This document shows, piece by piece, positions 4,300-33,028 of a stretch of DNA of 39,283 bases. The position numbers and the translations under genes were made by a program. The stretch comes from Patescibacteria group bacterium. GTDB lineage: Bacteria > Patescibacteriota > Gracilibacteria > UBA1369 > UBA12463. The first letter of the stretch is position 1. Each line of letters opens with the position of its first letter. The notes beneath the pieces were generated by a model, which saw only the letters and a program-made list of their open reading frames with translations, was not told where the DNA came from and made no database searches. Location: positions 1 through 39,283 of the forward strand of contig JBBTWG010000023.1 of assembly GCA_038062935.1 (NCBI GenBank). The letters are read 5' to 3'.

Positions 4300-4788
4300 A
4301 TGAAGCTCGAAAAAACTGACCTGATTGACATTAACCAAGCCGCATTCATCAGCGGAAAATCGATTCAAACGATTCGACGTGCAATCAAGTCAAAAAAGAT
4401 TATTGCTCGCAAACAAAGAACCCCCCAGGGATTCAATTATTTCATTTCGAAGAAGAGCGTCCAGGATTTTTTCTGCGCACCGACTGGCCATAACTTCCAG
4501 GATATTCCTGTGGAGGACATGGAAAACCACATGATTATTCAAGAGGCTATTCAGGAAACTCTCCAGGAGGCTACACAGCAGACTAGTCAAAGTCTTGAAA
4601 ACAGCGAGACAAAGCAGGAAATCAAGGATGTAAAACGTATGCTTCAGTCACTCATTGGACAATATCAGAAGGAGCGCGAACAAGTGGCGATTGTCCTGAA
4701 AGATATACAGGATCGTGTCCTCGTGAGTGAGAATCAGATTCGATTTCTCTCGGCTCCAAAAAAGAAATGGTATCAACTCTGGAGATAG
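4300..4788 (+). CDS. MerR/excisionase-like HTH DNA-binding protein with a coiled coil and an amphipathic C-terminal tail
   Basis: IDINQAAFISGKSIQTIRRAIKSKKI is an HTH pattern; heptad-rich C-terminal half; ends PKKKWYQLWR. Confidence 0.8.
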   Translation: MKLEKTDLIDINQAAFISGKSIQTIRRAIKSKKIIARKQRTPQGFNYFISKKSVQDFFCAPTGHNFQDIPVEDMENHMIIQEAIQETLQEATQQTSQSLENSETKQEIKDVKRMLQSLIGQYQKEREQVAIVLKDIQDRVLVSENQIRFLSAPKKKWYQLWR

Positions 4789-4800
4789 GCTTTGGTTTTT

Positions 4801-5232
4801 CTACAGAATATCCATTCGTATAGGATCTTTCTTTTTTGTTTGGAAAATTTCGACTTTTATTTGAGACTTTTGTGGGTCTGGGGAGTTTTGAGTTGGCAAG
4901 GGTGTGTTTTGTGCGGTTTGCGCGGGAATTATGGGATCTTTTTCGAAGACGGCTTTTTTGTGAGTTTCGTGAGACTCTTTTTTCCCCATATGTTTCTTTA
5001 ATTCGGCGACGAGGGCACTTTTCTTGTTGAGCGAGAAGAACTTCATGTTTCCGACTTTCTCGGAGAGTACGATGCCGTCGAGTTCCATACCTGCAAGTTC
5101 GCGCTGGAGCGACCCGGCGGAGTACTGCATCATCTCCGCGAGCTCCCGAAGGTAGTACTTCTGTCTACTCCCGTCGAACAAAATTTCGAGGACTGCCTTT
5201 CTAGCCTGAGATTTGAGGATTTTTGAGAACAT
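4801..5232 (-). CDS. Winged-helix DNA-binding protein (ArsR/MNT-associated type) with a low-complexity tail
   Basis: SQARKAVLEILF..YYLRELAEMMQYSAGSLQRELAGME..GIVLSEKVGNMKFFSLN; ATG 5232 preferred as start. Confidence 0.8.
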   Translation of the reverse strand: MFSKILKSQARKAVLEILFDGSRQKYYLRELAEMMQYSAGSLQRELAGMELDGIVLSEKVGNMKFFSLNKKSALVAELKKHMGKKESHETHKKAVFEKDPIIPAQTAQNTPLPTQNSPDPQKSQIKVEIFQTKKKDPIRMDIL

Positions 5233-5394
5233 TTTTTTCGGAGTTGAGAATGTTTTGAGAACAACTGTTCTCAATTCTGAGAACGATCGTACTCAATTCT
5301 GAGAACAACTTGAGAACGATTGTTTTCAGATTGGAGAACATTCGTACTCAATATTGAGAACGATTTGAGAACGAGTGTTCTCAGAATTGAGAAC
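5224..5394. repeat. 11-bp-phased array of TGAGAAC/GTTCTCA heptamers (putative operator array)
   Basis: 14 consecutive heptamers starting every 11 bp from 5245 to 5388, plus one at 5224; includes five GTTCTCA-N4-TGAGAAC-type palindromes. Confidence 0.9.
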
Positions 5395-5484
5395 AATTTA
5401 GCTTTTAAATTACTGATATGCAAGTTATTTTTAATTTGTTCTTTTTTTCTGGTCTGTTTTTGTATTTTTTACTACACTGTTTTC

Positions 5485-7434
5485 ATGTTCTTGCGCCTTC
5501 TCAAATGGGCGACTGCACTGATTGTGGTTGCTATGCCTCTCATTTTTTGGCCAGATTTGTATCTCACTTTTGAACTCCCTAAGACTGTGTTCTTCCGGAG
5601 TATGGTGCTCGTCTTGTTGCTGTTATTCATCCTGAGAGCGTTTTTTGAAGAATATATGAGCCTCCCACGGATACCAAAAGTTTTGGGATGGGTGATGCTT
5701 TTCCTTCTTCTTACTTTCATACTTTCTACAGTTTTTTCGGTGGCGCCATGGGAAAGTTTCTGGGGATCGTACTTTCGGCAGACTGGGCTCTTTACTCATC
5801 TCACTTTTTGGCTTTTTGCTGCTGTTTTTGTGATTTCTTTCGAAAAAAGGCATGTTTCTTTCTTTTTCCGATGTTTAGGCCTCTGCGGAATTTTTGTGGC
5901 CTTTTTTGGGCTTCTTCAGCATTTTTTGCCTTCTCTGAGCGGTTTCTGGGACGTTGATTTCTTTTTGGGACGGATTTTTTCCACGATGGGGCACCCGAAT
6001 GCACTTGGAACTTTTTTGGCAATGATTTTTCCGGTGTTTTTGTGGAAATCTCCCCTGGGGAACGATGATGATAAGAAAAAAAACCTGCGACGGATTTTTT
6101 GGATTTTTTCTACATTGATTCTTCTGATGGCAATTTTTCTCACGCGAGGACGTGGGGCGATGTTGGCGGCGGGATTTTCCGGATTTGTATTTTTATTGAT
6201 TTTTTTCTGGCGACGAGGGATGCGAAAAGTTTTTTGCATGACACTTCTCTTACCAATTTTTCTCGGAATTTTTCTTTTTGTGGGTGCAAAAATTTCCCCG
6301 CATGCTCCCCTTTTCAATCGACTTTCTTTGCAGGGTGAGAATGGTCGATCGGTGGAAACGCGCTTGCTCATGTGGCCTGCGACGGTTCGGATGATCGCAG
6401 ATCGACCGATTCTCGGCTATGGGCTCGAAACTTTTTCGCTGGTTTTTCCCAAGTACGCGCCGAAAGAACTCCTTCTTTTGGAAAATTTCCAATATGTGGC
6501 AGATCGTAGTCATAATGAATTTCTCGATATTGCAGCGACGACTGGGACTTTTGGGCTGGCGGCGTGGATATTATTTTTGAGTGTGATTCTCTTCTATGCA
6601 CTGCGAAATTGTGATCTGCGAAGTGTCGCTGCTGGATGCGGAATTCTCGCACTTCTTGTGGCGAATCAATTTAGTTTTTCGACGACGGTACATTGGGCTC
6701 TCTTCTGGTTTTTTGTCGGATGTATTGTGCTTCTGAACTTTGAAAAAAAATCCTACACACTCCCCTTTTTTCGTCGAAAATTGCTGAGTTTTTGCGTGCT
6801 GGTGGTTTCTTTTTTGGCGATTCTTTTCGTGATTTGGACGACGAGTGTTCGTGCGCTTGTGGCGGATCGATACTTTCGTTTGGCTCAGAATTCTGCGGAA
6901 AATGGTGATTTTCTTTCGAGTCTCGATTCATTTCAGTTGGCAGTGAATACTTTTTCGTTTCAGCATTTTTATAACTTGTCTGGAGCGCGAATGCTCATGA
7001 GTTTTGCGGATCGATTGCCGCGAGAATTACGCAATATTTTTCTCGATCCAAGTCGTGAATTTTTGAAAAATATGGGGAAAAATGAGACTTCTCGTGATCC
7101 TCATTTTTTCCTGGCGAGTGGGATTTTGGCACGACTGGAGGGCGATTTTGAGGTTTCTTTGCGCATATTTGTGCGTGCGCATGAGCTCGCGCCGCATGCA
7201 CCGGCATTGCTGCTCGAATGGGGGATGGCGCTTGCTGATGCGGGGAAATATCGTGAAGCAATTGCAAAATATGAGGAATATGTCTCGCTCGCGCCACCCT
7301 ATTGGAGTTGGAAAGATCGCCTCGATCTCAGCGAAGACGAGAAAAATCAACGACGAATTTTTTATAAGCTGAATCCGGGATTTGATCGAGTTTTTGAGTT
7401 GATTCATGTGGCGAAGCAGCAAATGAGTTCATAA
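5485..7434 (+). CDS. O-antigen ligase (Wzy_C) family membrane protein with C-terminal TPRs
   Basis: Many TM helices; motifs RIFSTMGHPNALG, LTRGRGA, RPILGYGLETF, DRSHNEFLD; TPR-like helical C-terminus. Confidence 0.88.
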   Translation: MFLRLLKWATALIVVAMPLIFWPDLYLTFELPKTVFFRSMVLVLLLLFILRAFFEEYMSLPRIPKVLGWVMLFLLLTFILSTVFSVAPWESFWGSYFRQTGLFTHLTFWLFAAVFVISFEKRHVSFFFRCLGLCGIFVAFFGLLQHFLPSLSGFWDVDFFLGRIFSTMGHPNALGTFLAMIFPVFLWKSPLGNDDDKKKNLRRIFWIFSTLILLMAIFLTRGRGAMLAAGFSGFVFLLIFFWRRGMRKVFCMTLLLPIFLGIFLFVGAKISPHAPLFNRLSLQGENGRSVETRLLMWPATVRMIADRPILGYGLETFSLVFPKYAPKELLLLENFQYVADRSHNEFLDIAATTGTFGLAAWILFLSVILFYALRNCDLRSVAAGCGILALLVANQFSFSTTVHWALFWFFVGCIVLLNFEKKSYTLPFFRRKLLSFCVLVVSFLAILFVIWTTSVRALVADRYFRLAQNSAENGDFLSSLDSFQLAVNTFSFQHFYNLSGARMLMSFADRLPRELRNIFLDPSREFLKNMGKNETSRDPHFFLASGILARLEGDFEVSLRIFVRAHELAPHAPALLLEWGMALADAGKYREAIAKYEEYVSLAPPYWSWKDRLDLSEDEKNQRRIFYKLNPGFDRVFELIHVAKQQMSS

Positions 7435-7499: not shown

Positions 7500-7530
7500 T
7501 AACGCTTGACGTTCATAACGCTATACGTTA
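7500..7530. promoter_or_regulatory. Putative HigA operator pair
   Basis: Two adjacent imperfect palindromes, TAACG-cttga-CGTTC and TAACG-ctata-CGTTA, directly upstream of higB. Confidence 0.55.
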
Positions 7531-7532
7531 AT

Positions 7533-7814
7533 ATGATTGTACATTTTCGATGTTCGCAAACTGCAAAAATATTTCGGAGAGAATGCTCAAGAAAATTCCC
7601 TCCTGAAATTCAAAAAGTGGCTTTGCGTAAGCTCTGGATGATTGATGCAACTTATGTTCTCAGCGATCTTCGGATACCGCCTTCTAATCACCTTGAAGCC
7701 CTTCGTGGCTCTCTCGAAGGTCGCTACAGCATTCGCATCAATCGACAATGGAGAGTCTGCTTCCGTTGGAGTAATGGGAATGCTTATAACGTCGAAATTG
7801 TTGATTATCATTAA
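7533..7814 (+). CDS. higB: HigB (RelE-family) toxin
   Basis: DLRIPPSNHLEALRG..GRYSIRINRQWRVCFRW..VEIVDYH signature. Confidence 0.93.
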   Translation: MIVHFRCSQTAKIFRRECSRKFPPEIQKVALRKLWMIDATYVLSDLRIPPSNHLEALRGSLEGRYSIRINRQWRVCFRWSNGNAYNVEIVDYH

Positions 7815-7826
7815 CTCCTTGTCACT

Positions 7827-8129
7827 ATGCCATCAAAAAAAATCATTGCGGTGCATCCTGGAGAAATTCTGGAAGAAGAATTCCTCAAACCTTTTCATCT
7901 GTCTCAATATCGCCTTGCAAAAGACATCGCTGTGCCGCCGAGACGGATCAATGAAATTGTCCATGGACTGCGAGCGGTGAGTGTCGATACGGCGCTGCGG
8001 TTGGCGCGATATTTTGGGAATTCTCCGGAGTTTTGGATGAATTTGCAGGCGCGATATGATTTGGAAATTCAGAAAGATATTCTGTCGGGACAATTGAAGA
8101 AAATTCCTGTTATTTCGGCTTTGAGATGA
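7827..8129 (+). CDS. higA: HigA antitoxin (XRE HTH)
   Basis: VHPGEILEEEFL..LSQYRLAKDI..RRINEIVHG.R..DTALRLARYFGNSPEFWMNLQ. Confidence 0.95.
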   Translation: MPSKKIIAVHPGEILEEEFLKPFHLSQYRLAKDIAVPPRRINEIVHGLRAVSVDTALRLARYFGNSPEFWMNLQARYDLEIQKDILSGQLKKIPVISALR

Positions 8130-8200
8130 TTTTGCATTCAATTTGCGTTCCTAGATTTTTTTTGTATACTGCGTTCGCAGTCTCCTATAACTTCTTCAAT

Positions 8201-10858
8201 ATGGCTTCTATGGCTACTTCTTTGAAGCACAGAGAACCGATCGGCTCTCATGTGCGTCCTTTGTCGTGCATCCTGGCTTTCGAGGAAGGGGATCGGAGTA
8301 TGAAGGCCTTGCTCGGCGGAAAAGGCGCGAATCTCGCGGAAATGACGAATCTGGGTCTTCCGGTGCCTCCGGGGTTTACGATTACGACGGAGGTGTGTGA
8401 TTTTTATTTGAAGAATCGTTCGTATCCGGAAGGGTTTTCTGAAATTCTGGAAGAGAAGCTTGCTGCACTCGAGACAAAAATGGGGAAAAAACTGGGAGAT
8501 GCGGAGGATCCTTTGCTTGTGTCGGTGCGGAGTGGTGCGGCGGTTTCGATGCCGGGGATGATGGATACGATTCTCAATTTGGGATTGAATGATGCGACGG
8601 TGGCTGGACTTGCAGCTCGTACGAATAATGAACGATTTGCCTGGGATTGTTATCGACGGTTTATTCAGATGTATTCGAATGTGGTACTCAACGTGCATCA
8701 CGATTTTTTTGAGGAGGCACTGAGTGCTGCGAAAGCGAAATGCGAAGTGCGTTTGGATACGGATTTGATGGTGGAGGATTTGAAAATGCTCGTCGTGGAG
8801 TACAAAAAAATTGTGAAAGAGCATGGCAAGGTAGAATTTCCAAGTGATCCGCGAGAACAGCTGAAAGGCGCAGTGGAAGCGGTTTTTCGATCTTGGAATA
8901 ATGATCGTGCGATCATGTATCGACGGATTCATCATTTGACGCATGTGTCCGGGACGGCAGCGAATGTGCAGTCAATGGTGTTCGGCAATATGGGCGAAAT
9001 GTCAGGAACGGGCGTGGCTTTCACGCGCAATCCTTCCACGGGCGAGAAAGTTTTTTATGGAGAATTTCTCATCAATGCGCAGGGAGAAGATGTGGTCGCA
9101 GGAATTCGCACTCCAGAGCCAGTTTCGGCGATGGAGAAGGTGCTTCCACAGGCGTACGCGCAGCTGATGGAGATCCAGTCGACGTTGGAAAAACATTATC
9201 GGGATATGCAAGATATCGAATTTACTGTGGAGAATGGTCGACTTTTCATGTTGCAAACGCGCAGTGGAAAACGCACGGCACATGCAGCGATCAAGATTGC
9301 GGTGGATTTGGTGAATGAAGGTTTGCTGACGCCAAATGAAGCGTTGATGAAAATTGATCCGTACTCTTTGTCGCAACTTTTCCATCCGCGTTTGGATCCG
9401 AAAGCGGAGAAAAAAGTCGTGGCGCGTGGGCTTCCGGCGAGTCCTGGAGCTGCGTCTGGTCGTGTGGTTTTCACGGCGGAAGATGCGGTGGAGTGGGTTT
9501 TGAAAAATGAAAAAGTGATCCTCGTACGTCGGGAAACGAGTCCGGAGGATATTCAGGGAATGCATGTTTCTCAGGGAATTTTGACATCGACGGGCGGACT
9601 TTCTAGTCATGCGGCGGTCGTGGCGCGGGGCATGGGAACACCATGCATCGCGGGGTGCAGTGCGATTACGGTGCAGCCTGCGCGAAAGAAAATTATCATT
9701 GGGGAATTGGAAATTTCGGAAGGGGATTTCGTGACTTTGGACGGCAGTACGGGCGAAGTGATGCTCGGTCAGGTGAAGATGATTCCGCCGACGGTGACGC
9801 CGGATTTGGACATCGTGCTCGGGTGGGCGGACAAGGCGCGACGACTGCATGTGCGTGCGAATGCGGACACGCCGGAGGACGCGGCGAAAGCGCGGGAATT
9901 TGGAGCAGAAGGAATTGGATTGTGTCGCACAGAGCATATGTTTTTCCAAGAAGGTCGCATCCAGTCGGTTCGTGAAATGATTTTGGCGCGCGATGTGGAT
10001 GCTCGAAAGAAAGCTCTCGCAAAACTTCTGCCGATGCAGCGCGAAGACTTCGTTGGGATTTTGCGTGTGATGAACGGATTTCCGGTGACGATTCGTTTGC
10101 TGGATCCACCGTTGCATGAATTTTTGCCAAATAAAGAAGATCAGATTGCGGCACTTGCTGAGGAGTTTGGCATTTCTCTGGATGCAGTGAAGAGCATTGC
10201 TTCCAATCTCCATGAGGTCAATCCGATGCTCGGGCATCGTGGATGTCGTCTCGCGGTGACGTATCCGGAGATTTATGAAATGCAGGTGGAGGCTATTATT
10301 CTGGCATGTATTGATGTGCGAAAAGAAGGCGTGGTGATTTATCCTGAGATCGAAATGCCACTGATTGCGAATGCGAATGAGATGAAATTTCTGCGAGAGC
10401 TTGCGGAAAATGTGATTGCGAAATATCGTCCGCAAATTGATTTCGAATACAAAATCGGTGCGATGTTGGAACTGCCACGAGCGTGTCTGACGGCCGATGC
10501 GATTACGCCGTATGCGGATTTTTTCTCTTTTGGAACGAATGATTTGACTCAGACAACCTATGGAATTTCGCGTGATGATGTTGGGAAATTTATGAATGCG
10601 TACATCGAAAAAGGCCTCCTAGAACGCGATCCGAGCGAGTCGATCGACGTCGCGGGTGTCGGCGAACTCATGAAAATTGCTGTGTCAAAAGCACGAAGTA
10701 TTTCTGGGAATATTGACATCGGCATTTGCGGAGAACACGGCGGAGAATCGGCGAGCGTGGAATTCTGTCACGCGATTGGGCTCAATTATGTGAGCTGCTC
10801 AACATATCGCGTGATTGGTGCGCGAGTTGCGGCCGGGAGGGCTGCGATCAACGTGTGA
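8201..10858 (+). CDS. ppdK: Pyruvate, phosphate dikinase
   Basis: Motifs LLGGKGANLAEM, VSVRSGA..SMPGMMDT, GGLSSHAAVVARG, GIGLCRTEHMF, FSFGTNDLTQ, GICGEHGG. Exact start uncertain. Confidence 0.97.
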   Translation: MASMATSLKHREPIGSHVRPLSCILAFEEGDRSMKALLGGKGANLAEMTNLGLPVPPGFTITTEVCDFYLKNRSYPEGFSEILEEKLAALETKMGKKLGDAEDPLLVSVRSGAAVSMPGMMDTILNLGLNDATVAGLAARTNNERFAWDCYRRFIQMYSNVVLNVHHDFFEEALSAAKAKCEVRLDTDLMVEDLKMLVVEYKKIVKEHGKVEFPSDPREQLKGAVEAVFRSWNNDRAIMYRRIHHLTHVSGTAANVQSMVFGNMGEMSGTGVAFTRNPSTGEKVFYGEFLINAQGEDVVAGIRTPEPVSAMEKVLPQAYAQLMEIQSTLEKHYRDMQDIEFTVENGRLFMLQTRSGKRTAHAAIKIAVDLVNEGLLTPNEALMKIDPYSLSQLFHPRLDPKAEKKVVARGLPASPGAASGRVVFTAEDAVEWVLKNEKVILVRRETSPEDIQGMHVSQGILTSTGGLSSHAAVVARGMGTPCIAGCSAITVQPARKKIIIGELEISEGDFVTLDGSTGEVMLGQVKMIPPTVTPDLDIVLGWADKARRLHVRANADTPEDAAKAREFGAEGIGLCRTEHMFFQEGRIQSVREMILARDVDARKKALAKLLPMQREDFVGILRVMNGFPVTIRLLDPPLHEFLPNKEDQIAALAEEFGISLDAVKSIASNLHEVNPMLGHRGCRLAVTYPEIYEMQVEAIILACIDVRKEGVVIYPEIEMPLIANANEMKFLRELAENVIAKYRPQIDFEYKIGAMLELPRACLTADAITPYADFFSFGTNDLTQTTYGISRDDVGKFMNAYIEKGLLERDPSESIDVAGVGELMKIAVSKARSISGNIDIGICGEHGGESASVEFCHAIGLNYVSCSTYRVIGARVAAGRAAINV

Positions 10859-10882
10859 CATTTGACTTGTGACGTGTGACTT
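10851..10882. repeat. TGTGAC-type heptamer repeats overlapping the ppdK stop
   Basis: acgtgtg acatttg acttgtg acgtgtg actt. Confidence 0.75.
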
Positions 10883-11704: not shown

Positions 11705-12586
11705 TTACCATCGCAATTTTTCACTGAGCTGTTCCCAATATGTCTTCTCACCGATGCGGAGAAATTGCATGTTGTAGCGAGATTTTTTGATGAGGATGTG
11801 GTCGCCGCGCTGGACTTCGTGACTGACTTGGCCGTCGAGGGTGAGACGCATTTCGGCGTTGGTTTCGCTTTTTTTGAGCATTTCGATTTCGATGCGGCTG
11901 TTTTCGGAGACGACTATGGGGCGCAGAGAGAGATTGAGCGGACAGATGGGATTGATGATCATGCCGCAGATTTCGGGATGAAGGACTGGTCCGCTGGCGG
12001 AGAGTGAGTGACCGGTGGAGCCAGTGGGAGTTGCGATGATGAGGCCGTCGGCGCGCATGTCGAAGATTTTCTTGTCGTTGATTTTGATGTTCATTCCAAC
12101 GAGGCGCGGGAAACTGCCCTGGCTGATGACGGCTTCGTTGAGCGCTGTTCCAGTGAGTAATTCTTTTTTTCCACGGAAAAGTGCGACGGAGAGAACGGCA
12201 CGATGCTCAAGTGTGTAGTTGCCTTTTGCTATTTTTTGGAGTGCGCTTTTGAGTTTTTCTTTCCGAATTTCGGTCATAAATCCCAAATTTCCGGTGTTGA
12301 TCGGGAGGAGTTTCACGTTGCCAAATTCCGTGAGACGCGCGCTGCGAAGAACTGTTCCGTCGCCGCCGATCGTGATGAAAAAATCTACTTTTCCGACCAT
12401 TTTTTCGGCGGGCATGCCTTTTTTCCCGAGGGTTTCTGCGGTGTTTTCGTCGTAGACGATTTCAAATTTTGATTGCTCGAGAATTTTTGCAATGTCACGA
12501 AGTTCGTTGATTTTTTCGTGTTCGGTGGAGAGGCGCTTTTTTCCGAAGATGCCGAGGGTAAACTTGTGAAGTGTGATTTGTGGCAT
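11705..12586 (-). CDS. nadK: NAD(+) kinase
   Basis: Motifs GGDGT, GNLGF, ALNE, ADGLIIATPTGST, DGQ. Confidence 0.95.
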   Translation of the reverse strand: MPQITLHKFTLGIFGKKRLSTEHEKINELRDIAKILEQSKFEIVYDENTAETLGKKGMPAEKMVGKVDFFITIGGDGTVLRSARLTEFGNVKLLPINTGNLGFMTEIRKEKLKSALQKIAKGNYTLEHRAVLSVALFRGKKELLTGTALNEAVISQGSFPRLVGMNIKINDKKIFDMRADGLIIATPTGSTGHSLSASGPVLHPEICGMIINPICPLNLSLRPIVVSENSRIEIEMLKKSETNAEMRLTLDGQVSHEVQRGDHILIKKSRYNMQFLRIGEKTYWEQLSEKLRW

Positions 12587-12630
12587 GTGACTTGGGGAAC
12601 TTGTGACATTTGACATGTGACTTGTGACTT
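12584..12630. repeat. TGTGAC-type heptamer repeats
   Basis: catgtgacttggggaacttgtgacatttgacatgtgacttgtgactt between the glycosyltransferase and nadK. Confidence 0.75.
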
Positions 12631-14333: not shown

Positions 14334-14546
14334 ATGAAAGAAGAACAACTTTGGAATACTGTCGTTTTTTACTGCAAAGACTGCGAAAGAATCGTGGACG
14401 TGGATCGTGCTGGGCGGAAATATGTTTATATGTGTAAAATTTGTCATACGAAAAATGTGGCTTTTGGAACGGAAAAAAGCATCCGTGGGTATTTCCATGT
14501 GGAAGACGAACCTGTGACTGAGGAACCTGTGACCAGTGACGTGTGA
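14334..14546 (+). CDS. Small zinc-ribbon-like protein
   Basis: Two Cys pairs, CKDC and CKIC, in a 70-aa ORF. Confidence 0.7.
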   Translation: MKEEQLWNTVVFYCKDCERIVDVDRAGRKYVYMCKICHTKNVAFGTEKSIRGYFHVEDEPVTEEPVTSDV

Positions 14547-14556
14547 CATGTGACTT
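14511..14556. repeat. TGTGAC-type heptamer repeats overlapping a stop codon
   Basis: cctgtgactgaggaacctgtgaccagtgacgtgtgacatgtgactt. Confidence 0.75.
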
Positions 14557-16424: not shown

Positions 16425-16883
16425 ATGTACGAGACTATCATGCAGGCGGCTTTGAAAATTGTTTCGCGGCGACGGCGGACGGTTTTGGAGATGCGGGGAA
16501 AACTTTTTGAGAAATTTCCTGGCGAAGACGTGGTGATTGAAAAAGTTTTGGTGCGACTTTTGGAGATGAAATATTTGGATGATTATTCGTATGTGCAGGC
16601 TTTTGCGCGGGATCGTTTGAAATTTCGACCGCGGGGGAAGAAGATGATTGAGTTTGAGTTGAAGAGGAAAGGTGTGGATGCTGCGACGGCGGCGAGAGGG
16701 CTTGCGGATTTGGAGATTGATGAAGTCGAGACGGCGCGGAAAATTTTTGCACTTTATAAGAAAAAATCTTCTTTTAAGCGAGCAAAAAATCAACGTGCTT
16801 CTGTTTTTCGGCATTTGGCGAGTCGCGGGATTTCTTTTGCTGCTGCGCAGCGGGTGGTGACGGAAAGCAGGATTGAGGATTGA
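16425..16883 (+). CDS. recX: Regulatory protein RecX
   Basis: ALKIVSRRRRT..E; YLDDYSY; PRGKKMIEFELKRKGV; HLASRGIS; downstream of recA. Confidence 0.9.
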   Translation: MYETIMQAALKIVSRRRRTVLEMRGKLFEKFPGEDVVIEKVLVRLLEMKYLDDYSYVQAFARDRLKFRPRGKKMIEFELKRKGVDAATAARGLADLEIDEVETARKIFALYKKKSSFKRAKNQRASVFRHLASRGISFAAAQRVVTESRIED

Positions 16884-16899
16884 GGATGTAGGATTGAGG
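16868..16899. repeat. TAGGATT/GAGGATT heptamer repeats
   Basis: caggatt gaggatt gaggatg taggatt gagg, overlapping the recX stop. Confidence 0.75.
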
Positions 16900-19312: not shown

Positions 19313-20293
<981 letters not shown>

Positions 20294-20310
<17 letters not shown>

Positions 20311-20638
20311 TATCAATAAAAGTTATGATGCGTATAAGGCGATTATAGTCATGAATAATGTTTTGGAGAAACGGTGGAGACTTTCTCTCGGCATCAGTCT
20401 CGAAAAATCGATTCTCGATTTTCTGGAATATGCCATTATGGCCAAGAATGCTCCAAAATCATTGAAGGCTTCGTACCTGATTAAAGCCAGCAGTTTGCTC
20501 GAGATTTCGACTTTGAAATTACGCCTTTTCCTGGAACTTCAACTCACGAATGAGACAAAAATCTTCCAGATACAGGGCATGCTCGCCGAGATTGGCAGAA
20601 TGCTTGGCGGATGGCTAAAGGCTTCACAGAGCACATAA
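20294..20638 (+). CDS. avd: DGR accessory variability determinant Avd (four-helix bundle)
   Basis: 114 aa from ATG 20294; LPIINKSYD..KRWRLSLG..LRLFLEL..EIGRMLGGWLK; lies between RT and TR. Confidence 0.88.
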
Positions 20639-23801: not shown

Positions 23802-24353
23802 TTAATTCATCTCTGCCTCTTCCAATGTGCAAATCCGACGATTGTGGTCGATGAGCGTTTCTTCATGGCGCGTGAGCGTGCCGCCCTGAAGTGCATCCAT
23901 CTGATCGCGTTTTTTGATAATGGTCACTACTTCATCCATCATGGTCCAGAGATTGTTTTGCATATCGCGCGTTTCTCGCTGCAAACTCAATGTTTCTTTG
24001 TGCATTTCTATTATCTCCCGCTGCATGGCCAACGATTTCAGATGCATATTTCGAAGCTCATGCTGCATTTCGATCATTTGAGTCTGCATATCTGTGACTT
24101 GTTGCTGCATGGTGCGAAGTTCCTGTTGCATGGCGCGTGATTCTTCGAGCATCGTGCGGTTTTCCTGTTGCATGGCGCGTGATTCTTCGAGCATCGTGCG
24201 GTTTTCTTTGTGCATGGCGCGTGATTCTTCGAGCATCGTGCGGTTTTCTTTGTGCATGGCGCGCAGTTCTGCAATATCCTTCTGGATTTCTGTTAGACCA
24301 TATTGGATTAATACCTCCTCAATAACTTTTCGGAGTTGATTGGCATTTGTCAT
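23802..24353 (-). CDS. Coiled-coil protein with 14-aa repeats
   Basis: (RAMHKENRTMLEES)-type repeats; Met/Gln/Glu-rich heptads. Confidence 0.75.
   Translation of the reverse strand: MTNANQLRKVIEEVLIQYGLTEIQKDIAELRAMHKENRTMLEESRAMHKENRTMLEESRAMQQENRTMLEESRAMQQELRTMQQQVTDMQTQMIEMQHELRNMHLKSLAMQREIIEMHKETLSLQRETRDMQNNLWTMMDEVVTIIKKRDQMDALQGGTLTRHEETLIDHNRRICTLEEAEMN
24120..24263. repeat. 42-bp tandem repeat, about 3.4 copies
   Basis: catggcgcg recurs at 24129, 24171, 24213 and 24255. Confidence 0.93.
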
Positions 24354-25354: not shown

Positions 25355-26476
25355 ATGAAAAAAATTGAGCATGTCAACTACGATATTCTGGACAAGGCGA
25401 AAGCGGCGTTCATTGTGGCGAGTCAGCGGACGGTGAAATTTGCTGGGGCTTATGGGTTTATTCCAGAGTCGGGATTTGGGTCTAGTGCTAATGTTTTTAC
25501 TCTCGATTTGAAACCTTTTTTGAAGGCTGGTGCGGAGAGTCTTTCGGTTACTTTGCTTCCTGAGGGCTTGGGGACGAGTGATGATGCGCGGCCGGAGGAT
25601 CTTTCGACGGAAGAGGCTTTGAAATTTTGGCATAATATTGGGATCAAAACGGTGGCGGTGATGACGAATGATGCGGCGGCGAGTGGGCTCCAGACCATTT
25701 TAATTTCCCTGTACTTGCCGAGCAGTACACCGGAAATTGTTTTCAATGAAACTTTTATGAAAGGGTTTTTGGATGGGTTTGTGGCGGGATGTGAAAAAGT
25801 GGGATGTGTGTATTTTTCTGGGGAAACGCCGCAACTGAAAGGGAAAATTCTTGAAGGAAAACTCGATATCGCTGGTGCGCTTTTTGGCATCTGTCCACCG
25901 GGGAAGAAACCTATCGACTCCTCGCGACTTTCTGCTGGCGATCAGATTGTTTTTATCGAAAGTTCTGGTCCGCATGATAATGGTTTTACGACGCTGCGAA
26001 AATTGGCTGCGGATTTGCCTCAAGGGTATCGCACGAAATTGCCAGATGGACGGGACTTCTATGACGCGATGAATGCGCCGACGATTTTGTATACGCCATT
26101 TGTGCAGAATTTACTTCGAGAGAATATCGACGTGACGAACATCGAACCGATTACGGGTCACGGATGGCAGAAACTCATGAGATCAAAAAAAAACCTTCGG
26201 TATGTGATTGAGACAATGTTGCCGGTGCCGGCGATTTTTGAGTTTGTCGAAAGGCACGCGAATATTTCGAAAGAAGAGATGATGAAGATTTTCAACTATG
26301 GTGTGGGAATGGCGGTTTTCACGCCTGGTGATGGAGAAAAGATTGTGGAAATTGCGAAGAAAAATGGCTTGAATGCGGTGGTTGCGGGCGTGACGGAAGC
26401 AAGTGAGCGACGCGAAGTTTTTGTGAAACCGCTCGGAGTGACGCTGACGGATGAAGAGTTTTTGTTGAAGAAGTAG
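25355..26476 (+). CDS. purM: PurM-like AIR synthase family protein
   Basis: NDAAASG, GET, SSGPHDNGFT, ITGHG, EMMKIFNYGVGM; divergent, with EGLGTS in place of DGVGTK. Confidence 0.75.
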   Translation: MKKIEHVNYDILDKAKAAFIVASQRTVKFAGAYGFIPESGFGSSANVFTLDLKPFLKAGAESLSVTLLPEGLGTSDDARPEDLSTEEALKFWHNIGIKTVAVMTNDAAASGLQTILISLYLPSSTPEIVFNETFMKGFLDGFVAGCEKVGCVYFSGETPQLKGKILEGKLDIAGALFGICPPGKKPIDSSRLSAGDQIVFIESSGPHDNGFTTLRKLAADLPQGYRTKLPDGRDFYDAMNAPTILYTPFVQNLLRENIDVTNIEPITGHGWQKLMRSKKNLRYVIETMLPVPAIFEFVERHANISKEEMMKIFNYGVGMAVFTPGDGEKIVEIAKKNGLNAVVAGVTEASERREVFVKPLGVTLTDEEFLLKK

Positions 26477-26525
26477 GATTGAGAATTTAGGATTTAGGAT
26501 GTAGGATTGAGGAGTTAGAATTTAG
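26474..26525. repeat. TAGGATT heptamer repeats (about 7 copies)
   Basis: taggatt gagaatt taggatt taggatg taggatt gaggagt tagaatt tag. Confidence 0.8.
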
Positions 26526-32984: not shown

Positions 32985-33028
32985 GTTAGGAATTAGGATT
33001 GAGGATGTAGGATGTAGGAATTGAATTT
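32985..33028. repeat. TAGGATT/TAGGAAT heptamer repeats
   Basis: ttaggaa ttaggat tgaggat gtaggat gtaggaa ttgaatt. Confidence 0.75.

Follow-up and report, generated by a model that had tools for sequence, protein, structure and literature searches.

A phased heptamer array beside an ArsR-like winged-helix gene: a candidate multi-site operator in the chromosome of uncultured Peregrinibacteria

Phased arrays of short repeats are established as operators for ParR at parC of R1 (PMC2241845) and for StbA at stbS of R388 (10.1101/2022.04.29.490116). As described for R1, parC consists of ten 11-bp direct repeats in two sets of five that flank the promoter and serve as operator and as platform, and ParR occupies them with about one dimer per unit on curved DNA (PMC2241845). 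The stbS site is described as two sets of five 9-bp direct repeats with 2-bp spacers, all in one orientation; its protein StbA, PadR-like and plasmid-borne, is reported to bind cooperatively, to repress its own gene and to have further operator sites at other promoters (10.1101/2022.04.29.490116). TubR is reported to spread in a cooperative manner along repeated sites, which extend over the promoter as well (PMC6009700), and Omega, the ParB of pSM19035, to read seven-base units in mixed orientation, of which at least four contiguous ones are needed (PMC9499535). BldC is described as multimerising cooperatively, head to tail, on direct repeats whose number varies. The pho boxes of PhoB/PhoP join 7-bp repeats and 4-bp spacers into an 11-bp unit for a winged-helix protein, and ArsR/SmtB operators comprise one or two palindromes. 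Here we describe an array of 14 heptamers upstream of the gene for a small winged-helix protein, termed the regulator below, in DNA from a Patescibacteria group bacterium (assembly GCA_038062935.1, contig JBBTWG010000023.1, positions 1 to 39,283 of the forward strand; this whole stretch of 39,283 nt is referred to as the window).

We favour, with a probability of roughly 55%, the reading that the array is a multi-site operator dedicated to the regulator, which binds it cooperatively and through it represses its own gene and probably also a divergent transcription unit that encodes a Wzy_C (O-antigen ligase-like) protein and pyruvate phosphate dikinase (PPDK). This reading draws on (i) the joint occurrence of gene and array at all 13 orthologous loci, (ii) selection on the heptamers, (iii) their exact phase, (iv) the fold of the protein, (v) the single target, (vi) the position at the edge of a promoter-like element and (vii) the precedent of the phased operators of R1 and R388.

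The heptamers start at 5245, 5256, 5267, 5278, 5289, 5300, 5311, 5322, 5333, 5344, 5355, 5366, 5377 and 5388. An earlier note made from the sequence had listed these positions and read the units as F (TGAGAAC) or R (GT(T/A)CTCA), in the order (F-R-F-R-F)x2, F-R-F from 5256 onwards. Every start and every orientation was confirmed; the definition of the heptamer is exact for 11 of the 14 units and is missed by a single base in the other three (TGAGAAT at 5245, GTTTTCA at 5322 and GGAGAAC at 5333). Tandem Repeats Finder reports a period of 55 bp between 5255 and 5397 (2.6 copies, 80% matches). The additional F unit that the same note had placed over the start codon is present and extends into the ATG of the gene on the minus strand (CAT at 5230-5232). 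Its distance to the unit at 5245 is 21 bp and not 22 bp, so that it stands 1 bp out of the array register. With 14 units plus the start-codon unit the site is, as had been claimed, far larger than an ordinary operator. The inverted pairs and unpaired half-sites into which it resolves are listed in Table 1.

Table 1 Features of the regulator locus and of the remaining window, in window coordinates
Feature	Position	Strand	Details
Regulator gene, 143 amino acids (aa)	4801..5232	-	start MFSK conserved in all orthologues
ArsR-like winged-helix domain, residues 1-86	4975..5232	-	block-mean predicted local distance difference test (pLDDT) 75-90
Low-confidence linker, residues 87-135	4828..4974	-	probably disordered
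Conserved C-terminal peptide DPIRMDIL	4804..4827	-	GDIxLHIE in sister genus
Start-codon half-site TGAGAAC	5224..5230	-	gene strand reads ATGTTCTCA
Main array	5245..5394	.	14 heptamers, exact 11-bp period (7 bp + 4-bp spacer)
Perfect 18-bp palindromic pair	5256..5273		TGAGAAC-AACT-GTTCTCA
Pair with single central mismatch	5278..5295		TGAGAAC-GATC-GTACTCA
Orphan (unpaired) half-site	5300..5306	-	points towards regulator gene
Imperfect pair	5311..5328		TGAGAAC-GATT-GTTTTCA
Imperfect pair	5333..5350		GGAGAAC-ATTC-GTACTCA
Perfect pair	5366..5383		TGAGAAC-GAGT-GTTCTCA
Further orphan half-sites	5245-5251, 5355-5361, 5388-5394		
Promoter-like element	5395..5423	-	-35 TTGCAT (5423-5418), 17-nt spacer, -10 TAAATT (5400-5395)
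Divergent Wzy_C (O-antigen ligase-like) membrane protein with C-terminal TPR	5485..7434	+	
PPDK	8126..10858	+	downstream of Wzy gene, co-directional
TGTGACA-type repeats	10854-10882, 12562-12628, 14528-14554		
TAGGATT/AGGATTG-type repeats	16869-16899, 26465-26525, 32986-33019		

The source genome comprises 1,018,961 bp in 59 contigs, of which the window is contig C23. Its two strands together contain 124 copies of TGAGAAC, close to the roughly 132 expected, so that the heptamer is at background frequency, and a genome-wide search for the heptamer, as the earlier note had suggested, yielded no second array. Among 200-bp bins, the densest contains 12 heptamers and the runners-up 2 each, and the combinations TGAGAAC-N4-GTTCTCA and TGAGAAC-N4-TGAGAAC are confined to the array. 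Heptamer pairs at 11-bp distance with at most one mismatch number 0 in this genome outside the array, versus 1-5 in five shuffles; with two mismatches there are 14 such pairs, versus 23-39 pairs of all kinds in the shuffles. Because no further site was found in this genome, which is 93.6% complete, the sole recognisable target of the protein would appear to adjoin its own gene.

Positions 4700-5700 were recovered unbroken, with 0 differences and 0 gaps, in contigs of three sequencing runs from two studies, at least one of which may itself have yielded the window. Twelve further, independently assembled loci show the same architecture. Since the array is identical in independent assemblies and its heptamers are clustered far beyond chance, it is real, non-random and no assembly artefact, one of the outcomes that the earlier note had named as fatal to its proposal.

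Scans of species genomes and metagenomes for relatives gave 15 loci. One (L012) is the same record as L006, and two (L014 and L015) were rejected as orthologues and left out as distant relatives, with 48% identity over 62 residues and without an array. The remaining 12 together with the window make up 13 loci: the window, nine species genomes and three metagenome contigs. L016, L018 and L046-L052 are the same records as L001-L009 and were counted once. An array lies immediately upstream of the orthologue in 13 of 13 loci, as expected if, in the terms of the earlier note, homologues were to carry arrays as well. Each locus has 8-14 classified units in addition to the start-codon unit. The gene starts with ATGTTCTCA in all loci except L013, where the start reads ATGCTCTCA, and the first heptamer encodes the Met-Phe-Ser codons. 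In 11 of the 13 loci the 11-bp register is strict and anchored on the start-codon unit; in the window and L013 it is intact inside the array and 1 bp off the start-codon unit.

We classified the units by reading them towards the regulator gene, '>' denoting GTTCTCA and '<' denoting TGAG(A/T)AC or TGAAAAC. Nearly all arrays then parse into inverted pairs '<>' (TGAGWAC-N4-GTTCTCA) and single units. The last '<' of each in-register array partners the start-codon unit, and the remaining single units are all '>', with the sole exception of a spurious '<' at the far end of the array in the window. The two classes differ in sequence: '>' units read GTTCTCA in 68 of 85 cases, while the 68 '<' units read TGAGTAC (23), TGAAAAC (19) or other variants, the exact complement TGAGAAC being found only 4 times. 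Perfect palindromes account for 5 of the 56 pairs in the 13 loci. The 55-bp higher-order orientation pattern is real in the window and recurs in no other locus; elsewhere the orphans recur at distances of 3, 5 or 7 units. The proteins of L010 and L011 are identical, and their arrays differ by exactly one 11-bp unit.

Nine of the 13 loci share the pattern of the first nine units (99 nt) and were aligned unit by unit; the window, L009, L010 and L013 were dropped from this alignment for their differing pattern or register. Mean pairwise identity among the nine is 0.91 for the heptamers and 0.60 for the spacers, compared with 0.49 at third and 0.82 at first and second codon positions of the winged-helix domain. 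The heptamers are therefore better conserved than the adjoining protein-coding positions. The recognition helix and the heptamer are both nearly invariant across the loci. The spacers are A-rich on the gene strand. Phased A-tracts are associated with intrinsic DNA curvature, and the composition of the spacers suggests such a curvature of the array DNA.

Seven loci (L002, L010, L011, L001, L005, L006 and L009) contain a second cluster of two or three of the same heptamers. In L002, L010 and L011 this cluster lies ~100-150 bp upstream of the main array, within the first codons of the divergent Wzy gene (…TTTCGAGAACGATTTGAGAAC…), and in L009 it is an isolated palindrome, TGAGAAC-AAAG-GTTCTCA. These clusters suggest looping or a second control point. 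By eye, we also noted two or three copies of a motif AGCTTTA, 11 bp apart, in the spacer between Wzy start and array of L010 and L002/L005; the window has one copy at 5400-5406, and the motif partly coincides with the Wzy start region.

We built an AlphaFold model of the regulator on 19 family sequences. It shows a confident winged helix over residues 1-86 and a low-confidence coil beyond. The modelled elements are helices at 9-20, 28-35 and 39-51, strands at 55-60 and 63-68 and a helix at 73-86, so that the elements of the ArsR/SmtB fold (recognition helix, beta-hairpin wing and C-terminal helix) are all present. In the recognition helix (approximately residues 37-51), Y37, S38, G40, S41, L42, Q43, R44 and E45 are invariant among the 19 sequences, as are the wing residues G61, N62, F65 and F66 in the family alignment. 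The best Foldseek matches in the PDB are the ArsR-family protein 3f6o, SrnR (7p6f), HlyU (3jth) and TubR (3m8e), with E-values of 3e-4 to 1e-3; TubR ranks third, and the centromere-binding protein of pNOB8 (4rs8) ranks 50th. A profile search of PDB sequences likewise returned HlyU (E 0.002). ArsR proteins sense metals or thiols through Cys pairs in helix 3 or through Asp, His or Glu in the last helix. Residues 1-86 of the regulator contain no Cys and one His, and the invariant columns contain neither Cys nor His.

Past residue ~86 we found no Pfam domain, and no enzyme domain is present in the protein. The linker is very variable in length across the family and comprises 60-200 Pro/Gln/Thr-rich residues in the sister genus. 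The C-terminal motif DPIRMDIL ends no other open reading frame of at least 60 aa among the 2,906 scanned in the genome. We considered the TPR part of the divergent Wzy protein as a partner for this peptide and dropped the idea: a simple hydropathy and positive-inside count, crude as it is, gives four membrane spans after a large outer loop and thus places the TPR outside the cytoplasm.

A profile search against 1.84 billion representative sequences retrieved 20 family members at E<1e-30 and 2,197 remote relatives down to E 1e-3. The nearest of the latter (E ~1e-20 to 1e-12) are proteins that combine a winged helix with a nucleotidyltransferase, which we take to be MntA-like antitoxins. Among 26 remote relatives scanned, 14 carry NTP_transf_2/Polbeta after the winged helix, and single ones carry a HEPN, receiver, NUDIX or HD domain. 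The loci of 27 remote relatives contain no long array and at most 2-7 scattered hexamer copies. Remote relatives, Pfam and the model agree with the proposal of the earlier note that the protein resembles the winged helix of helix-turn-helix (HTH)-nucleotidyltransferase antitoxins and has no enzyme domain.

At the distal edge of the array lies a sigma-70-like promoter-like element that reads towards the regulator gene. It scores 7/12 in the window, and its positional equivalents score at least 8/12 in 12 of the 13 loci; the consensus over the loci is TTGC/A.., a spacer of 16-17 nt and TACAAT, the latter formed by the outermost '<' unit. If this element is the promoter, the array would mostly be transcribed leader of 100-170 nt. 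The array had been described as a control region of the divergent gene; this promoter position would instead place most of it in the leader of the regulator. In genome G134 of the window's own genus (L009/L018) the array has no Wzy gene next to it; it stays beside the regulator and directly faces PPDK. It follows that the array travels with the winged-helix gene and not with the O-antigen-ligase/TPR gene. The missing Shine-Dalgarno site was considered as a mark of a leaderless mRNA and rejected, as 21 of the 24 window genes checked likewise lack a Shine-Dalgarno-like word at a distance of up to ~20 nt from their start; for the most part, the organism seems to initiate translation independently of them.

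Under the operator reading, the ArsR-like protein would recognise the half-site GT(T/A)(C/T)TCA. The 11-bp spacing would put successive molecules roughly on one face of the DNA, where they would be able to touch. A dimer on an inverted pair is plausible because the centres of the inverted half-sites are 11 bp apart, which suits two ArsR-type recognition helices; such a dimer would contact two adjacent major grooves of the 18-bp pair, and successive dimers would lie 22 bp apart. The orphan half-sites, pointing towards the gene, would preserve the phase. Once enough protein has accumulated, cooperative filling would coat 100-170 bp, from at or beside the -10 element to the start codon, and would shut the gene off by promoter occlusion combined with a roadblock. 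The divergent Wzy-PPDK unit, or PPDK alone in G134, would be a likely second target, and the large number of sites may produce a steep, threshold-like response.

Relaxed B-DNA has ~10.5 bp per turn. A period of 11.0 bp rotates successive units by ~17 degrees and adds up to ~220 degrees over 14 units, and the idea that one unit per helical turn brings all sites to one face is therefore correct only roughly, unless the DNA is untwisted. The complex would thus have to untwist the DNA or follow a shallow superhelix. Superhelical complexes are described for ParR (PMC2241845) and TubR (PMC6009700).

We determined the distribution of the gene in two genome samples. In an even sample of the class (201 genomes), clear orthologues are confined to the window's own family. 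In a sample of the order (201 genomes), 10 genomes have the gene at E<1e-25: both genomes of the window's genus and 8 of 9 of a second genus, with 0 of 5 in the third genus of the family. The gene was not found in the 185 searched genomes of the other 18 families of the order. Gene and array thus occur in two genera of one Peregrinibacteria family, in a few uncultured groundwater bacteria; the DNA is met with in groundwater or drinking-water habitats. The usual gene order is PPDK, Wzy_C/TPR, array, regulator, a 200-aa membrane protein, a HTH_17 coiled-coil protein and GlnA or DnaJ, and synteny with housekeeping genes is kept in the 13 loci.

In the window, the HTH_17 coiled-coil and Wzy_C/TPR genes flank regulator and array; in the third-genus genome G245 the same two genes are 19 bp apart on one strand. 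Because of this short distance, the ~700-bp unit of gene and array (about 4789-5484) has the appearance of a self-contained module that was inserted; a loss in the third genus would be the less parsimonious alternative. A winged-helix relative near the HTH_17 gene of the sister-genus genome G268 was examined as a diverged equivalent and discarded, being an ordinary winged-helix and nucleotidyltransferase protein without an array. The HTH_17 protein itself (162 aa, window 4300-4788 on the plus strand, L053 840-1421) has an N-terminal HTH_17/MerR-like part, a coiled-coil-like middle and the conserved end …APKK.W..W. It is present in 87 of 101 sampled genomes of the order, often beside the 199-aa membrane protein, and looks like a core gene.

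Several observations weigh against the operator reading. Membership in an ArsR-type family falls below cut-off, as all Pfam and NCBIfam matches are sub-threshold: EarA scores 16.9 bits (cut-off 22), HTH_metalloreg 20.3 (55) and SdpR 15.8 (100). The protein has no ligand-binding domain and lacks the metal-site residues, which leaves the signal that would relieve repression unexplained. A consensus scan found nothing consistent as a promoter towards the divergent gene, and none in most loci; adjacency is what suggests a link with the Wzy-PPDK unit. A regulator that recognisably targets only its own promoter region would need a further purpose. The picture of one dimer per pair is incomplete, as the orphans could not be filled by a symmetric dimer without a clash with its neighbour, and the systematic departure of '<' half-sites from the exact complement of '>' is an asymmetry that it does not explain. 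Finally, a long disordered tail with a conserved end peptide would be superfluous for a simple repressor and, by analogy with centromere-binding proteins, points to a partner.

Such a partner is at the heart of the best surviving alternative, which we regard as possible and rather unlikely: array and regulator would form, on the chromosome, a centromere-like or anchoring complex akin to those of StbA, ParR and TubR, and its tails would show the end peptide to a motor, membrane or pole protein. Autorepression would then be a by-product, as in plasmid partition operons, and the two readings are compatible. One site per genome, with 10-15 phased units upstream of the gene for the binding protein, would suit this role, and the succession of DNA-binding domain, flexible region and terminal peptide matches the descriptions given of ParR and StbA. 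StbA is described as working without a dedicated nucleoside triphosphatase (NTPase) and on an 11-bp repeat cycle. TubR and the pNOB8 protein are among the Foldseek matches; the match to TubR is, however, no better than those to ordinary ArsR repressors. The module-like appearance of gene and array would fit as well, but the context is ordinary chromosome, with genes for RecA, NusA, UvrD, NrdR, NAD kinase and DprA in the window beside PPDK and DnaJ. In none of the loci examined is there an adjacent gene for ParM, TubZ or a ParA-type protein; the genes found there encode Wzy_C/TPR, PPDK, a 199-aa membrane protein, the HTH_17 coiled-coil protein and DnaJ or GlnA. The genome holds the tail motif only once, and no partner for it was identified. 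Canonical ParB is rare in the order, with any ParB_N match in 41 of 201 genomes, but ParB_N shows no association with the array, as it is matched in 2 of 10 array genomes and in 39 of 191 others; that array genomes specifically lack ParB is not borne out by these numbers. The open frames that hold most of the ParB_N matches are ~420-510 aa long and may not be canonical ParB.

A more far-reaching version, to which we attach still less weight, regards the cassette as a motor-less plasmid-style segrosome captured into the chromosome. The 10-15 phased winged-helix units would form a single landmark, the tails would tether or position the chromosome in cells that mostly have no canonical ParB, and autorepression would be the housekeeping side of the system.

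It is improbable that the array acts as RNA, with hairpins in the mRNA leader controlling stability or translation and the start codon in the last pair. The promoter-like element at the distal edge would have the array transcribed, and the 177-nt strand folds at -61.6 kcal/mol (z = -8.8 versus shuffles), although a strong fold follows trivially from inverted repeats. The details do not fit hairpins: full complementarity is restricted to the 5 of 56 pairs, the recurrent U-U and A-C mismatches cannot wobble, and orphan direct units keep an exact 11-bp phase that hairpins do not need. Compensatory changes are absent, as the heptamers barely vary, and no Rfam family matches at threshold, the best hairpin-like match reaching 44 bits versus 211.

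We consider it very improbable that the repeats are iterons of a replication origin, either of the chromosome or of an integrated element, and the iteron-like platform of the earlier note is not upheld. Phased short repeats beside a winged-helix protein resemble such origins, and short repeats near the origin are reported for a Peribacteria genome (PMC4736985). GC skew, however, stays above zero on either side of the array throughout the 39-kb window, without a switch, and dnaA lies on another contig (C30). No Rep-like or DnaA-like gene is a neighbour in the loci examined, the protein is a single winged helix of 143 aa, and the housekeeping synteny also argues against an origin. A chance repeat, a functionless slippage product or an assembly artefact is scarcely credible, given the identical contigs, the presence in all orthologous loci and heptamer conservation far above neutral sites, even though unit number differs between the close relatives L010 and L011.

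Regulation and chromosome handling are almost unstudied in bacteria of the Candidate Phyla Radiation (CPR), these organisms being uncultured. The locus offers a compact protein-DNA pair, with a 143-aa protein, a 170-bp target, a clear architecture and natural variants that differ by whole units. It may serve as a model for cooperative winged-helix assemblies and for the way in which the number and orientation of the units determine the response. Should the tail recruit a partner, the system would be the first chromosomal counterpart of the NTPase-less positioning systems of the StbA type. If the protein is only an autorepressor, the operator is still unusually large and would indicate that such arrays are not confined to plasmids.

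Further features of the window are independent of the array. A pair of HigB-like toxin and HTH_3 antitoxin genes (7506-8129) lies between the Wzy gene and PPDK; it is absent from that site in the other scanned loci, where PPDK directly follows Wzy. Contiguous 7-bp tandem repeats of two types, TGTGACA and TAGGATT/AGGATTG, stand at gene boundaries (Table 1). At least three contiguous copies occur at 29 places for TGTGACA and at 77 places for TAGGATT in the genome (1.02 Mb), and these repeats look like a dispersed intergenic signal, be it a terminator, a binding site or another element. A reverse-transcriptase frame (RVT_1, 19316-20316, minus strand) is split into two overlapping open reading frames, with a (CT)15 microsatellite at 19770-19800 in or next to the overlap, and may be broken or phase-variable. 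A 42-bp tandem repeat at 24120-24291 (3.4 copies, 97% matches) lies inside an open reading frame of unknown family (23805-24353, minus strand).

We compared the locus with the described systems. The closest in layout is StbA-stbS, which according to its description shares a small protein with an N-terminal (winged) HTH and a separate, in StbA non-conserved, C-terminal part, an 11-bp cycle, ten units upstream of the protein's own gene and positioning without a dedicated NTPase. Unlike stbS, the array described here has units of 7+4 bp in mixed orientation and in one block, an ArsR-like protein, a chromosomal location and a single target. ParR-parC, as described, likewise has 11-bp units upstream of the operon that encodes the binding protein, but ParR is a ribbon-helix-helix protein, its repeats are direct and its operon also codes for the actin-like motor ParM. 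TubR (3m8e, 3m9a) shares the ArsR-like winged helix (Foldseek E 4.6e-4, root-mean-square deviation 2.6 Å over 81 columns). Its sites differ, being described as blocks of different short repeats in tubC, with 12-bp direct repeats in pBtoxis (10.1101/2022.04.29.490116), and the system, which resides on a plasmid or prophage, also encodes the tubulin-like TubZ next to TubR. The heptads of Omega, in the available description, resemble our units in being seven bases long and in both orientations (for example, seven heptads), and Omega combines the functions of repressor and centromere binder; its heptads are contiguous (7-bp period), and the protein winds round the DNA, is of the ribbon-helix-helix type and has a ParA partner.

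Among chromosomal regulators, the ArsR/SmtB repressors (HlyU 3jth, SrnR 7p6f, RHA00566 3f6o) share the fold, a local regulatory role beside a divergent gene and inverted half-sites that suit a dimer by lying about one turn apart. The regulator differs from them in its sub-threshold scores, missing sensor residues, 10-15 half-sites and long disordered tail. With the MntA-like proteins only the winged helix is related, since the regulator has no nucleotidyltransferase domain and no HEPN gene is adjacent in the loci examined. Pho boxes and BldC sites involve a response regulator and a MerR-like protein, respectively, with many targets, direct repeats only and far fewer units; in Pfam the regulator matches neither a receiver domain nor the Trans_reg_C winged helix, and only the 7+4-bp spacing of its DNA is PhoB-like.

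We found no description of this array in the literature searched, a search that did not include most subscription journals and supplements. As in plasmid centromeres, at least four phased repeats stand upstream of the gene for a binding protein; a motor NTPase in the operon (StbA being the exception) and a location on a plasmid, on a phage or beside an origin are absent, as are the adjacent initiator gene and the strand-asymmetry switch of iteron origins. The system appears to work like the phased operator and centromere arrays of plasmids and yet belongs to none of those families, because its protein differs from ParR, Omega and StbA, no motor gene accompanies it and it does not reside on a plasmid. 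It presents a new combination: a chromosomal, lineage-specific CPR cassette that joins a tailed ArsR-like winged helix to a mixed-orientation array of 10-15 units with an 11-bp period in what would be the leader of its own gene.

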